A stretch of DNA of 45,071 nucleotides from Alphaproteobacteria bacterium (lineage in GTDB: Bacteria > Pseudomonadota > Alphaproteobacteria > SHVZ01): the NCBI GenBank assembly GCA_964201945.1, contig CAXNIC010000003.1, positions 1-45,071 of the forward strand. The letters are read 5' to 3'. The notes under the pieces are model-generated. The model was given only the letters and a program-made list of their open reading frames with translations, made no database searches and was not told where the DNA came from. The number at the start of each line of letters is the position of its first letter. Position 1 is the stretch's first letter. The translations under genes and the position numbers were made by a program. Positions 21 through 18,760 of the stretch are shown one piece after another.

Positions 21-70
21 CCTCATCAGTAGCCAGCAAGGCGCTGGCAGACCGCCCTCAGGCGGTTTCG
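21..70 (-). ncRNA. Hammerhead-like element 1 (long stem I)
   Basis: CGAAAC CGCC-UGAG-GGCG GUC U-GCCAGC/GCUGGC-UA CUGAUGAG; loop III holds the TGA stop of 58..405; next ATG at 14-12 (gene runs off the window). Confidence 0.7.
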
Positions 71-405
71 CTCGGTGCGGTGTAGCCCTTGGACATCCAG
101 AGTTGCGGCCGGATGTTGCTGAGCCAGTCGGCGACGGTCGGGATGCGACCGCCGCAGTCTTCCTGGACGTGCTGCTCGCCGATATAGCGAACGGGCACGA
201 TCTTGCCGTCCGAGTTGGTGATCGTCGGGCCGAACACGCGCTCGGCCTCGAAGATCCCCTGGCTGTGATGCCGGAGCGCCCGGTGCCGGAAGTCGGCAAA
301 GGTCTCCTTGGTTGCATCGAACCAGTCGTGGATCGGAAGGTAGTCCTCGACCTTGCCCCCCCACTTCTTCACCGAACTAGCGGCGTGGAAATGGGGATGG
401 GTCAC
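58..405 (-). CDS. Conserved hypothetical protein (DUF6915-like)
   Basis: HP..HA.SS.KKWGG..EDY..IH.WFD..K....D.RHRALRHH pattern recalled from this family; ends SETA* inside element 1. Confidence 0.75.
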   Translation of the reverse strand: MTHPHFHAASSVKKWGGKVEDYLPIHDWFDATKETFADFRHRALRHHSQGIFEAERVFGPTITNSDGKIVPVRYIGEQHVQEDCGGRIPTVADWLSNIRPQLWMSKGYTAPSETA

Positions 406-908
406 AGCTCGTGATCCGATCTATCCGACTGGATGTAGAAGTCCCGGTGGACGAGAGCGAGATGATCGGTGGCGATGGTCCAAACGAACTGGCCCTCGCC
501 CCCGTCATTGTTCTCCCAGCCGCCGTGAAGCGCCTCCAGGTGGTCATCGAACAGGCGCTCGACGGCCTCCTGCAGCATTACTTCCTCGGGCGACCGGAGT
601 GGTTTGGCGTTGAAACCGACGTACTCGACCGTCACCTTGATGGCCGAAACGTCGACTGCCTCCGCCTCGCCGAGATCGGCGCGCGCAACGTCATCCGCGC
701 ACCCTTCTTCAACCTCCTCGGCTTCCTTGCGGAAGGCGAAGGCGTCGAATGCGCCGGAGTCGCCGCTGCCGCTGTAGTTGGCGACAACCTGGGCGACGCC
801 GGCCGCAGCTAGCGCGGCGAGGATGACGGCGCGATTCCTCTTCGCTACCTCCATCCGCTTGGCGTCCTCGGCCGTCATCGAACTGCGGATCTCTTCCATG
901 CTTGTCAT
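402..908 (-). CDS. Conserved hypothetical protein (DUF6878-like)
   Basis: YSGSGDSG and GWENNDGGEG motifs; ATG at 908 follows the SD in element 2; 4-nt overlap with 58..405. Confidence 0.7.
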   Translation of the reverse strand: MTSMEEIRSSMTAEDAKRMEVAKRNRAVILAALAAAGVAQVVANYSGSGDSGAFDAFAFRKEAEEVEEGCADDVARADLGEAEAVDVSAIKVTVEYVGFNAKPLRSPEEVMLQEAVERLFDDHLEALHGGWENNDGGEGQFVWTIATDHLALVHRDFYIQSDRSDHEL

Positions 909-917
909 GGATTTCTC

Positions 918-968
918 CCTCATCAGTGCCGGCATGATCGCCGGCGACCGGGTGTCCCCCCGGTTTCG
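918..968 (-). ncRNA. Hammerhead-like element 2 (long stem I)
   Basis: CGAAAC-CGGG/CCCG-GUC-GCCGGC/GCCGGC-A-CUGAUGAG. Confidence 0.7.
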
Positions 969-971
969 TCT

Positions 972-1628
972 TTAGGCGGCGCGGCCGCGGATGCCGTGGC
1001 CGACGAAGACGATGGTCTTCGTGCGGGCCGCCGGCGCCCAGCAGAGCGCGCAGGTGCCGCAGCTCTTGGTCTTGCCCATTTGCTCCGGGCAGACCAGTCC
1101 CTCAGCTGCTCGCCCGTCGTCCGGCACATGCCAGATAACGTGCGCACCTTGGGACTGCGGTCCAGTGGAAAAACGGACCGCGAAGCGACGCCAGCGCGTG
1201 CGGCTGATTTGCCACAGCGCGCCGCCGATCTCCGTGTCCTTGGGCCAGGCGGTGTACCCGTAGCAACGCATCGCCGGGAACCTGGCCAGCCAGGACTCCC
1301 ACAGCCGGACATAGTCCAGGCTGTAGAAGTCGCCGAGCTGGTGCAGGCGCACGACGAAGCCACGGGGGTGCTGGTGCTGCTTCTCTGCGAGGGCGGCCTC
1401 GAGCTGTTTCTCGAAGGCCGGGCCCGGGTGGTGGCGCCTGGCGAACGGCATGCCATTGCCGTAGCAAGTCTCCCAGTTGGCGCACGAGCTCGGGCACGTA
1501 GCCCGCTCCTCGAGCGTCACCAGGTAGATTGGCATGCCGCGCCATTTGCCCTTCCGAACCCAGCCGCCGATCTTGTCGTTGCCGGCCGCGGAGGTGAGCA
1601 GGGGACGCGGATCATTGTGGTCGACCAC
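972..1628 (-). CDS. GP88-like Cys-rich phage protein
   Basis: TCPSSC....CY, VRLHQLGDFYS, YGYT and C-terminal CP....K..SCGTC.LC motifs; frame stays open to ~1740, so the start is uncertain. Confidence 0.7.
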   Translation of the reverse strand: MVDHNDPRPLLTSAAGNDKIGGWVRKGKWRGMPIYLVTLEERATCPSSCANWETCYGNGMPFARRHHPGPAFEKQLEAALAEKQHQHPRGFVVRLHQLGDFYSLDYVRLWESWLARFPAMRCYGYTAWPKDTEIGGALWQISRTRWRRFAVRFSTGPQSQGAHVIWHVPDDGRAAEGLVCPEQMGKTKSCGTCALCWAPAARTKTIVFVGHGIRGRAA

Positions 1629-1740
1629 CGTGGCCGGGAACCGGGTGTTGCCCGATTTAAGCCACGGTGAGTCGGCAGGCGGGCGCCAGACATTCTCCGG
1701 CGCCAGCCGAACAGACGATCGATTTGTGATTGATATGCTC

Positions 1741-1788
1741 CGTCGTCAGTGCCGGGAAGACCCCGGCAGACCGGCGGAGCCGGTTTCG
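1741..1788 (-). ncRNA. Hammerhead-like element 3 (CUGACGA, 7-bp stem I)
   Basis: Stem I UGCCGGG/CCCGGCA; N7=C; position 10.1 is C (variant). Confidence 0.65.
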
Positions 1789-1793
1789 TGTCG

Positions 1794-2117
1794 CTACAGA
1801 GCGGGTTCGGCGTCCTTGACGGTCCACATGGCGCTGATGCAGCCGAGCTCGATGTGAGCCGTGCCTCCGGTTTCCAGCCATCGCATGTGGTTGATGTTCG
1901 AGCCGTCATTGAACCCCGTGGCGCGCTGCCACCGGAAGAGCTCGAGGCTCAGGAAGCTCTGGTACTTGCCGATTCCGGGCGGGTCTTCGTCGTGCGGCCC
2001 GAGATAAGGGACGCCCCCAACGAAGATGTGCCCGTTCACCAGCACGGCAACCAAGTCGCCGTCCTCGACCTTCTGTGCGTTGGCCGCCAGAAAGGCACGA
2101 ACGTCTCTTTCCTGCAT
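1794..2117 (-). CDS. Hypothetical protein
   Basis: 107-aa ORF filling the space between two elements; GAGGAG SD. Confidence 0.75.
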   Translation of the reverse strand: MQERDVRAFLAANAQKVEDGDLVAVLVNGHIFVGGVPYLGPHDEDPPGIGKYQSFLSLELFRWQRATGFNDGSNINHMRWLETGGTAHIELGCISAMWTVKDAEPAL

Positions 2118-2124
2118 GTTGTCT

Positions 2125-2161
2125 CCTCATCAGGTTGTTCGACCGGGTCTCCCCGGTTTCG
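2125..2161 (-). ncRNA. Hammerhead-like element 4 (minimal stem I)
   Basis: CGAAAC CGGG-GAGA-CCCG GUC GAACAAC CUGAUGAG; GNRA loop III. Confidence 0.65.
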
Positions 2162-2166
2162 ACAGT

Positions 2167-17625: not shown

Positions 17626-17632
17626 GTCATCT

Positions 17633-17669
17633 CCTCATCAGGTTGAACGACCGGGTCTCCCCGGTTTCG
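17633..17669 (-). ncRNA. Hammerhead-like element 33
   Basis: GAGA (GNRA) loop III. Confidence 0.65.
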
Positions 17670-17670
17670 A

Positions 17671-17883
17671 TCAGGCGATCGCCATCAGGAGCTCCTCGGC
17701 TCCGTAGACGAACGGCCCGCCGCACTTCGCGCAATCGTAGTCGCGCGCGTCCGGCTCGCACCCGTCAGCTTCGGTTCCGCAGCTGGTGCAGAAGCCGACG
17801 TTGTCGAGCCCCTGGTTCGAGCGCTGCACGCCGTCCATGATGACGTCCGGCGTGAGGCTCGCGTGCATAGGCTTGCACAGCAT
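17671..17883 (-). CDS. Small zinc-ribbon protein
   Basis: GFCTSCG...CEPDARDYDCAKCG...VYGAEE. Confidence 0.75.
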   Translation of the reverse strand: MLCKPMHASLTPDVIMDGVQRSNQGLDNVGFCTSCGTEADGCEPDARDYDCAKCGGPFVYGAEELLMAIA

Positions 17884-17894
17884 GGCTGTCTCCT

Positions 17895-17930
17895 AAAAGA
17901 AAAAGGGCCCGATGATCTCTCATCAGGCCC
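17895..17930 (-). terminator. Intrinsic terminator overlapping a hammerhead-like core
   Basis: GGGCCUGAUGA-GAGA-UCAUCGGGCCC followed by UUUUUCUUUU. Confidence 0.8.
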
Positions 17931-17958
17931 TCGGGCAACCGGGTTGACCCCGGTTTCG
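17918..17958 (-). ncRNA. Hammerhead-like element 34 (GUU triplet)
   Basis: CGAAAC CGGG/CCCG GUU GCC-CGAG-GGC CUGAUGAG; GUU still satisfies NUH. Confidence 0.62.
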
Positions 17959-17960
17959 AC

Positions 17961-18437
17961 TTATGCGGCGACGTCCAGCCGCTCGGGCTTGGACATCGAG
18001 CTCGGCTCGATCGTCGCCATCAGGTGGAACTCGACGAAGCGGCTGGGGTCCAGCATGAACCCCGGCCGGTCGAGATCGAGATTGACCAGCCCGGACGACG
18101 CCGGCGGGACTCCGTCGGCGACGCTGAGCGTGATGTGGTACGGCTTGCCGTCCTGCCGGAAGGGCTGTGCGCCCTCGAGCATGACGCCGAGCGAGTCCAC
18201 GCGGTCGTCGACGTGACGGCCGTAGATGGTGACCAGGATGGGCTTCCCCGTCCGGATCTTCTGAGCGATCTCCGCGGGCAGGCCCTGGAGCGCCTCCTCC
18301 CTCGACTTCGCCCCGTAGCCGAGCGTCACATGGAACGCGTGGCCGTTGGGGTGCCGAGGCGGATGGTTCTTCAGGACATGCGCCCGCAGGGTCTGCGGCA
18401 GAACCAGCTTCACGATGAAGGGTCTCTGCTTGCTCAT
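17961..18437 (-). CDS. 2H phosphoesterase family protein
   Basis: Two HxT motifs: FHVTL and YHITL(S...GVPP..S). Confidence 0.75.
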   Translation of the reverse strand: MSKQRPFIVKLVLPQTLRAHVLKNHPPRHPNGHAFHVTLGYGAKSREEALQGLPAEIAQKIRTGKPILVTIYGRHVDDRVDSLGVMLEGAQPFRQDGKPYHITLSVADGVPPASSGLVNLDLDRPGFMLDPSRFVEFHLMATIEPSSMSKPERLDVAA

Positions 18438-18446
18438 GGTGTAGCT

Positions 18447-18496
18447 CCTCATCAGATGCCAGCGGATTGCTGGTCGACCAGCCGAGGCTGGTTTCG
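18447..18496 (-). ncRNA. Hammerhead-like element 35
   Basis: Stem III CAGCC/GGCUG; stem I CCAGC/GCUGG. Confidence 0.67.
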
Positions 18497-18715
18497 TCAG
18501 GACCGTGCAGCCTTGACGAGCTGCACCATCGAGGTGAGCAGAAAGCGCTGCTCCTGCATGATGGCGTCGAGCACGATGTCGCGCACGTCGACCGGGACGA
18601 GCTCGGCGACCATTGACGATTTCGAGAAGGCCTCGTAGGCCCGCTCGCTCTCGGCGAAGCGCTTCGCGTCCAGGCACAGGCCGTTGGTGACATGGCTCGG
18701 CAATGGCTTAGACAT
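18497..18715 (-). CDS. Hypothetical protein
   Basis: 72 aa; TGA abuts CGAAAC. Confidence 0.68.
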   Translation of the reverse strand: MSKPLPSHVTNGLCLDAKRFAESERAYEAFSKSSMVAELVPVDVRDIVLDAIMQEQRFLLTSMVQLVKAARS

Positions 18716-18723
18716 TTCTGTCT

Positions 18724-18760
18724 CCTCATCAGGTTGTTCGACCGGCCGAAGCCGGTTTCG
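18724..18760 (-). ncRNA. Hammerhead-like element 36
   Basis: UUCG loop III; GAACAAC stem I. Confidence 0.65.

Follow-up and report, generated by a model that had tools for sequence, protein, structure and literature searches.

An array of 36 hammerhead-like elements of type II order, 20 of them lacking stem I, between the accessory genes of a phage contig

The window analyzed here is a whole contig of 45,071 bp (CAXNIC010000003.1, 66% G+C) from GenBank assembly GCA_964201945.1, assigned to an Alphaproteobacteria bacterium, and its right half carries phage head and packaging genes. A string of minus-strand genes runs leftward from ~20.4-20.67 kb to position 1 and off the contig end. No element lies between the first four small genes of this string (20389-18761). 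From position 18760 onward, ~40 small accessory genes are separated by 36 copies of a short element within 18.7 kb, with a mean spacing of ~520 nt. Read on the coding strand, each copy consists of C-GAAA-C, a hairpin, GUC or GUU, a spacer and CUGANGA, which is the order of a type II hammerhead ribozyme. The gene following element 36 is truncated by the contig end, and the array may extend past it.

The elements were located in the window with a loose pattern (GAAAC, 8-22 nt, GUH, 3-34 nt, CUGANGA), which gave 36 distinct matches between 22 and 18760; every one is on the minus strand, and the plus strand has none. A strict pattern (CGAAAC..GTC..CTGANGAG) had 33 matches in the 5.04-Mb assembly, all on this contig and strand, and the reversed-pattern control had none. 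The sequence CTGANGAG alone occurred 38 times, compared with 9.9 ± 3.6 in 100 shuffles, and 34 of the 38 occurrences were inside elements. A covariance model (R1), built from 20 copies, recovered all 36 elements, 35 of them at E ≤ 0.0076 and element 20 at E 0.18; scanning the window with R1 revealed no further full-length copy. In 60 related genomes, the pattern had 0-3 matches each, unclustered and similar to reversed-pattern controls, and the Rfam family Hammerhead_II (RF02276) had no match in 12 genomes of the host's order except in this window. One further candidate, CTGACGAG at 19719-19726 (-) with CGAAAC ~45 nt downstream, has type I/III order and no Rfam match, and was dropped as a chance occurrence. 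Occurrences of CTGACGAG at 13621, 19476 (plus strand) and 39472 lie outside the elements.

Every one of the 36 copies retains the full set of 13 core nucleotides. CUGANGA (C3-U4-G5-A6-N7-G8-A9), CGAAAC (G12-A13-A14 and flanks), the A15.1-U16.1 pair and the C-G pair are each present throughout, and only N7, H17, the stems and the loops vary. At N7, 28 copies have U, three C, three A and two G. At H17, 35 copies have C and the single GUU copy (element 3) has U. Stem III has 5-8 contiguous, G+C-rich pairs in 35 of 36 copies, and element 18 has the same with a bulged C. Pairs 4-6 of this stem change on both sides in a compensatory manner. With E < 10 as the cutoff, 23 of the 36 elements match RF02276, at 19.7-36.9 bits, including 11 of the type without stem I described below; none of the 23 matched another ribozyme family in Rfam (E-value mode).

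A preliminary description of this DNA, made from its letters alone, had reported 36 hammerhead-like elements on the coding strand, with the hammerhead core in type II order and with variation that follows hammerhead rules, including the N7 variants and the single GUU. The pattern counts, the recovery by R1, the invariant core and the Hammerhead_II matches all agree with this account. A covariance model recovers every copy and 23 resemble RF02276, but the Rfam threshold is reached by none. Other details were corrected. The closing sequence that it gave holds as CUGANGA in every copy, but not in the G that follows, since two copies end in CUGACGA-C or CUGACGA-U. Its statement that the stems change while staying paired is true of stem III, with compensatory changes across all copies, and not of stem I, which is formed in 16 of 36. 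The loops, described there as often UUCG or GNRA, are of these kinds in only 9 of 36 stems III, and the largest class of stem III loops contains the stop codon of the upstream gene.

Stem I divides the elements into two types. It was assessed copy by copy, and no pair counts were taken from the MAFFT alignment of the 16 copies with a stem I hairpin, in which GUC and stem I were misaligned. Sixteen copies (hairpin copies) form stem I as a loop-closed helix of 3-8 bp (at least 5 bp in 15 of them), drawn from ~10 different helices. Their 1.1-2.1 pair is Watson–Crick in nine copies, G-U in four and mismatched in three. The other 20 (linker copies) have in its place a short linker, for which 13 different sequences occur. 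These linkers are poor in G (17 G in 137 nt), and their first and last bases are Watson–Crick complements in 20 of 20 copies (13 G-C, 7 U-A), which was matched by 0 of 10000 shuffles. Across stem III and the junction pair of the linker copies, 155 of 155 cells are paired and four pairs are double-changed, giving a covariation score reached by 0 of 500 shuffles. All 20 linker copies have U at N7, as do only 8 of the 16 hairpin copies. The two types occur in runs along the array. The linker copies keep every core nucleotide together with a covarying 1.1-2.1 pair, which indicates that they are under selection as hammerhead-like junctions.

The elements are fused to the genes on both sides. Among 34 ORFs called directly after an element, 27 have their start codon 6-11 nt past A9, and GGAG follows A9 directly in 23 of the 36 copies. 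Loop III contains the upstream stop codon in 14 copies; in 21 others this codon precedes G12 by 1-9 nt, and in one by 25 nt. For element 35 the position is a frame-based offset, an estimate that is otherwise confounded by spurious open frames at 66% G+C. All but two of the 36 copies have a G10.1-C11.1 pair. For its 3' strand, stem II uses the end of the upstream gene, overlapping the stop codon, and for its 5' strand the GGAG ribosome site. Where the stop codon is in loop III (e.g. elements 5, 11, 31 and 36), the upstream proteins end in element-encoded ETA, ETAA or KPA, and the terminating ribosome must melt stem III. In element 3, CUGAUGA forms one arm of a terminator-like hairpin (Table 1), so the ribozyme and terminator folds would be mutually exclusive. 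Some neighboring genes have no element between them and overlap instead, at ATGA-type junctions near 4136-4140 and 16437-16451 (-), with the start in or next to the previous stop. The units of the array are therefore of one or two genes, as the preliminary description had stated.

Repeats at gene borders could also act at the DNA level, as short homologies for the exchange or duplication of cassettes. This would account for the 36 near-identical 17-nt cores at cassette borders, for a cargo of small and mostly unnamed accessory genes, and for the runs of element types, as local copying or conversion would give. The PeSL cassettes of T4-type phages (PMC2839356, PMC4122927) are similar in having a repeated regulatory motif that borders small variable genes in a hyperplastic region, but PeSLs are promoter-plus-terminator DNA motifs and not ribozyme-like RNA. 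We find a DNA-level explanation hardly credible, because the strand bias, the fixed stop/start register, the compensatory stem changes and the hammerhead-specific variation point to selection on RNA. No related phage was found for a comparison of swapped cassettes, and such a role could coexist with cleavage.

The combination of a fixed core, a varying N7, C or U at H17, covarying pairs, and freely changing loops and linkers leads us to read the elements as a hammerhead lineage that would cut 3' of GUC; a hammerhead predicts such a pattern, which would not be expected of a simple hairpin with a ribosome site. With moderate confidence, we propose that a minimized, diverged type II lineage cuts a long leftward transcript into mRNAs of one or two genes. 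In this proposal, each element sits between cistrons of a long leftward accessory-gene operon, and its RNA would cut itself 3' of GUC after transcription. The stem III hairpin, bearing a 2',3'-cyclic phosphate, would then form the 3' end of the upstream mRNA, and the downstream mRNA would start with a 5'-OH ~20-40 nt before the start codon, shortly before the ribosome site. One transcript would thus give messages of one or two genes with protected ends, without the need for a host RNase. The 16 hairpin copies would be likelier ribozymes than the linker copies.

Several observations weigh against this proposal. All 36 copies fall short of the 37 bits that Rfam sets as its gathering threshold. 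The open stem II is short: two copies have no pair in it, 14 have one, 19 have two and one has three. In 20 of the 36 copies stem I is missing, and the A/C-rich linker of 5-9 nt can give only 1-2 pairs; no complementary partner that could form a discontinuous stem I with a linker was detected within ±80 nt. Among the hairpin copies, 7 of 16 are G-U or mismatched at 1.1-2.1, and several have an extra or bulged nucleotide beside C3. Candidates mispaired beside the core were discarded by Perreault et al. (2011, PMC3088659). In several linker copies, the fold of minimum free energy prolongs stem III so that it runs into the core. We saw no pseudoknot joining loop I to the 3' tail: complementarity of at least 4 bp is present in 2 of 16 hairpin copies, in neither case above shuffled controls, and the linker copies have no loop I and so no such contact. 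Most type II members have this pseudoknot, although not all. Natural stems II of 1-2 bp are known, paired with a pseudoknot, and one type II ribozyme, whose stem II is 1 bp long, lost activity more than 100-fold without it (PMC3088659). Engineered hammerheads whose helix II was shortened to one G-C pair are active (PMC544870), and these miniribozymes and minizymes resemble the elements in that the core cleaves with a minimal helix II; their helix II is closed by a covalent linker, however, and their helices I and III are long, whereas stem II in the window is open. A literature search found no engineered construct lacking helix I. The helices needed to hold a hammerhead together are unusually weak in this array and half of the copies miss one, which makes catalytic competence uncertain, most of all for the linker type.

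Alternatively, the elements, or the linker half of them, may derive from hammerheads but no longer cleave. They would serve instead as intercistronic modules, with a stable hairpin shielding the upstream message and, for the next gene, an unstructured standby site rich in A and C ahead of the GGAG. The absence of stem I from 20 copies, the open stem II of 0-3 bp, the lack of a pseudoknot and the sub-threshold scores of all copies are consistent with this, as are the GGAG directly past A9 in 23 of 36 copies and linkers that are G-poor and unpaired. The uniform U at N7 of the linker copies would then reflect an extra constraint or a young subfamily. However, loss of cleavage leaves unexplained why GAAA, GUC and CUGAUGA are fixed in 20 copies while the loops, linkers and stem III diverged, and it does not explain the covariation at 1.1-2.1. 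We consider this alternative the main rival, but tentative and somewhat unlikely.

Cleavage might instead depend on a helper, such as the 16S rRNA anti-Shine–Dalgarno sequence binding GGAG (10.1-10.4) and extending stem II in trans, or an RNA-binding protein of phage or host that clamps the core. In most copies the 5' strand of stem II is indeed the ribosome site, the cis stem II is too short for stability alone, and the core is kept even without stem I. We know of no such helper for any hammerhead. No direct evidence for one turned up in literature searches, and binding of the 30S subunit would more simply compete with the G10.1-C11.1 pair. A helper requirement is thus very unlikely in our view, and we retain self-cleavage by a diverged type II lineage as the preferred reading.

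We next compared the array with others. The preliminary description knew of isolated phage hammerheads but of no array like this one, and its claim of novelty is not supported. Type II hammerheads are common in bacteria, and clusters of them flank individual prophage genes, three arrangements of which cleave in vitro and one in E. coli (PMC3088659). These clusters, a 96-kb IMG/VR contig described below and the engineered hammerheads with a one-pair helix II are precedents for the proposed reading. Those arrays are similar to the window in their core, in their permutation (stems I and III closed, stem II open), and in their intergenic position on the coding strand next to single small phage genes; processing of a polycistronic transcript is the role proposed for them as well. 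Hammerheads in phage context also flank small ORFs of unknown function, with their role left unresolved (De la Pena et al. 2017, PMC6155905; Weinberg et al. 2019, PMC6765202). In hammerhead-interspersed vrRNA arrays of VIPR systems (bioRxiv 10.64898/2026.04.26.720920), repeated hammerheads likewise cut an array transcript, but the VIPR units are small guide RNAs, whereas those of the window are protein-coding cassettes.

Canonical type II arrays were easily found in IMG/VR, where one pattern scan matched at least 119 loci. Eight fetched loci contained 20 elements over the threshold, at 39-58 bits. Locus L168 (6,146 bp) has nine above-threshold elements in 6.1 kb, and L192 has seven in 4.8 kb; the 36 elements in 18.7 kb are four times the largest array fetched (9). 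The canonical IMG/VR copies have stems II of 3-4 bp, pseudoknots and full stems I. The window differs from known RF02276 arrays in its sub-threshold scores, in a stem II of 0-3 bp that doubles as stop codon and ribosome site, in having no pseudoknot, and in the 20 of 36 copies that have no stem I.

Two IMG/VR loci are closer in form. L098, on a 96-kb contig, has nine pattern matches in 5.8 kb, which share their minimal subtype with the hairpin copies of the window, and L099 has six in 2.4 kb. As in the window, the stop codon lies directly before C-GAAAC, GGAG lies directly after CUGANGA, stem II has 0-1 bp, some loops III contain stop codons, and the scores are below the Rfam threshold. Unlike the window, both have a stem I hairpin of 5-7 bp in all copies, and the arrays are smaller. 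L127 (4-bp stem II) and L098 (minimal stem II) both contain well-formed type II hammerheads that give no match at the gathering threshold, which suggests that threshold-based annotation undercounts phage hammerheads.

The linker type was sought elsewhere as well. Other fetched loci, ~1.97 Mb in total, contained 173 hammerhead-like elements with a stem III of at least 5 bp, and no credible short linker was present among these 173; the eight short cases were singletons from scans selected for short spacing. An exact-pattern scan of viral contigs gave 0 linker copies, and the linker scans required exact CGAAACC, GGTC and CTGATGAG(GAG), so that diverged copies would escape. A looser viral scan returned 79 loci, which were canonical hammerheads matched via GGTC inside loop I, or single chance-like matches. 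The linker scan also returned four genome-contig and 13 metagenome-contig loci, of which only L107 had a stem III, a lone 5-pair stem judged to be a chance match. In the literature, no larger array and no natural hammerhead lacking stem I was found, with the limit that Figures S1-S8 and Dataset S1 of PMC3088659 may hold larger arrays or variants whose stem I is short. The kind of array, phage type II hammerheads, has been known since 2011; new are the scale, the stop/start fusion, a minimal architecture that scores below the threshold and, most of all, the lack of stem I in 20 copies.

Related phages with the motif and a different cargo, for which the preliminary description had proposed a search, were not found: megablast of both halves of the window against a phage collection gave no match. 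No relative of the DUF932 cargo protein was found in the viral contig collection. The cargo consists mostly of small proteins without a named function. Those with a named domain are DUF932, a PAPS-reductase domain, a DNA methyltransferase, DUF6927, DUF5983, DUF3846 and a 2H phosphoesterase. By these annotations, the cargo fits an accessory or anti-defense-type region.

The 2H phosphoesterase is encoded by the second cargo gene. Both of its HxT motifs are conserved in 36 aligned relatives, four of which match the Pfam tRNA-ligase CPD domain, and its nearest clusters in the Atlas belong to the same family. A separate homologous-protein search with the 158-aa protein returned the query alone. Its structural model (pLDDT 93) has bacterial CPDase, CNPase and fungal tRNA-ligase CPD as top PDB matches, with TM ~0.5 and E ~2e-3. 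Hammerhead products bear 2',3'-cyclic phosphates, so a 2H enzyme could act on them; going by family and predicted fold, RNA repair or the degradation of an immune signal could equally be its function. Most of the 36 relatives, the protein of the window (..LDVAA) among them, end in Ala-Ala or Val-Ala, ends that we take to resemble an ssrA-like C-terminal degradation signal.

A bolder version of self-cleavage makes use of this enzyme. The linker copies would be active natural two-helix hammerheads of ~33-40 nt, coupled to translation, with their cuts made irreversible by the 2H enzyme. Stem I would be a single covarying pair closed by a loop of 3-7 nt, and stem II would have 1-2 pairs, with the Shine–Dalgarno sequence as its 5' strand. 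The coupling would involve both folding and cleavage, through ribosomes that finish the upstream gene within stem III and through 30S binding at 10.1-10.4. The irreversibility would come from removal of the cyclic phosphate by the 2',3'-cyclic phosphodiesterase that the second cargo gene encodes. We regard this version as clearly unlikely.

The transcript running into the array likely starts in an AT-rich divergent intergenic region (Table 1); no consensus promoter was called on the minus strand. Upstream of the array, two paralogous small proteins (19844-20077 and 19072-19281, both on the minus strand) have the common motif LKPxNG..AA.I.A.PAY; their genes are ~560 nt apart, with no evident gene between them. 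A terminator-like hairpin was noted by eye at ~19010-19050 (-), before the last element-free gene, and consists of GGGCCGUGGUG..CACCGCGGCCC followed by UUUUCAC; it was not called by the scan. In the right half of the window, the Mu-F-like head morphogenesis protein has an N-terminal inorganic pyrophosphatase domain (InPase, PF18823; E 1e-34). The assembly around the contig is a metagenome-assembled genome of 524 contigs and 5.04 Mb, 75% complete. A search of sequencing runs found the contig sequence in no RNA run and in one DNA run, a lake-water metagenome that may be its source; two more runs of the same study contained next to none of its words.

Table 1. Positions of the hammerhead-like elements and of other features in the 45,071-bp window.
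Feature	Position	Strand	Description
Element 1	18725..18760	-	Linker GAACAAC; loop III UUCG; N7 U; upstream stop TGA abuts C11.1
Element 2	18448..18496	-	Hairpin, stem I CCAGC/GCUGG, unpaired flanks; N7 U
2H phosphoesterase (2',3'-cyclic phosphodiesterase-like), 158 aa	17961..18437	-	Second cargo gene; two HxT motifs
Element 3	17919..17958	-	Hairpin; sole GUU copy; CUGAUGA within terminator stem
Terminator-like hairpin	17903..17932	-	13 pairs, then U run; overlaps 3' core of element 3
Element 4	17634..17669	-	Linker GUUCAAC
Element 5	17232..17264	-	Linker UCCAA; upstream stop in loop III
Element 6	16651..16692	-	Hairpin CUGCC-UUCG-GGCAG; N7 C; 10.1 is U, no 10.1-11.1 pair
Element 7	16176..16216	-	Linker GUUCAAC; 8-bp stem III; stop in loop III
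Element 8	15835..15869	-	Linker GAACAAC
Element 9	15576..15611	-	Linker GUCCAAC; sole 3-bp stem II; stop in loop III
Element 10	15262..15294	-	Linker UGAAA
Element 11	15022..15054	-	Linker UGCAA; stop in loop III
Element 12	14491..14524	-	Linker UCACA
Element 13	14244..14279	-	Linker UCCACAA; stop in loop III
Element 14	13719..13753	-	Linker GAACAAC; stop in loop III
Element 15	13445..13480	-	Linker GUUUCAAC; stop in loop III
Element 16	12863..12908	-	Hairpin, 8-bp stem I; N7 G
Element 17	12147..12195	-	Hairpin, extra U before C3; N7 A; stop in loop III
Element 18	11692..11742	-	Hairpin; stem III with bulged C, UUCG loop
Element 19	11054..11101	-	Hairpin, G-C at 1.1-2.1, bulged A; stop in loop III
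Element 20	10808..10858	-	Hairpin CGGUUUU/AAAACCG, extra C before C3; N7 A; weakest R1 match
Element 21	9676..9712	-	Linker GAACAAUC
Element 22	8311..8344	-	Linker UGAAA; loop III GAAA
Element 23	7517..7551	-	Linker GUUCAAC; stop in loop III
Element 24	7247..7282	-	Linker GGUUACAC
Element 25	6635..6672	-	Linker GUCAACAAC; stop in loop III
Element 26	6266..6312	-	Hairpin, 8-bp stem I; N7 G
Element 27	5465..5511	-	Hairpin; 34.9 bits to RF02276
Element 28	4698..4745	-	Hairpin GCCGGC/GCCGGC, extra U before C3; 31.7 bits to RF02276
Element 29	3942..3977	-	Linker UUCACAA
Element 30	3611..3647	-	Linker GUCAACAAC; stop in loop III
Element 31	3215..3262	-	Hairpin, 7-bp stem I; N7 A; stop in loop III
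Element 32	2554..2602	-	Hairpin, C-A mismatch at 1.1-2.1; N7 C
Element 33	2126..2161	-	Linker GAACAAC
Element 34	1742..1788	-	Hairpin, 8-bp stem I; N7 C; 10.1 is C; top Rfam score (36.9 bits; threshold 37)
Element 35	919..968	-	Hairpin, extra A before C3
Element 36	22..70	-	Hairpin; stop in loop III; next gene cut by contig end
AT-rich divergent intergenic region	20400..20668	.	Read from the sequence
Large terminase	23213-24931	+	Right half of window
Portal	24945-26870	+	Right half of window
Mu-F-like head morphogenesis protein	27858-29513	+	Right half of window

As of 2019, what hammerheads do in bacteria and phages was still described as largely elusive (PMC6765202). The contig offers a strong natural test case, with 36 junctions in one operon and a stem I graded from full through bulged to none; a stop codon and a ribosome site are joined to each junction, at opposite ends. 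If the linker copies cleave, the natural minimum of the hammerhead shrinks, and searches at the Rfam threshold miss a class. If they do not, a ribozyme has been turned into a plain intercistronic module with its core still under selection, which itself needs an explanation. In the early transcript of phage T7, host RNase III cuts between genes to give stable messages that end in hairpins. T7 uses a host protein enzyme on double-stranded sites, whereas the RNA of the window would cut itself. By analogy, a self-cutting array, if real, would be a host-independent counterpart of this processing, and the array may provide a route to stable single-gene messages for anti-defense-type cargo without host RNases.

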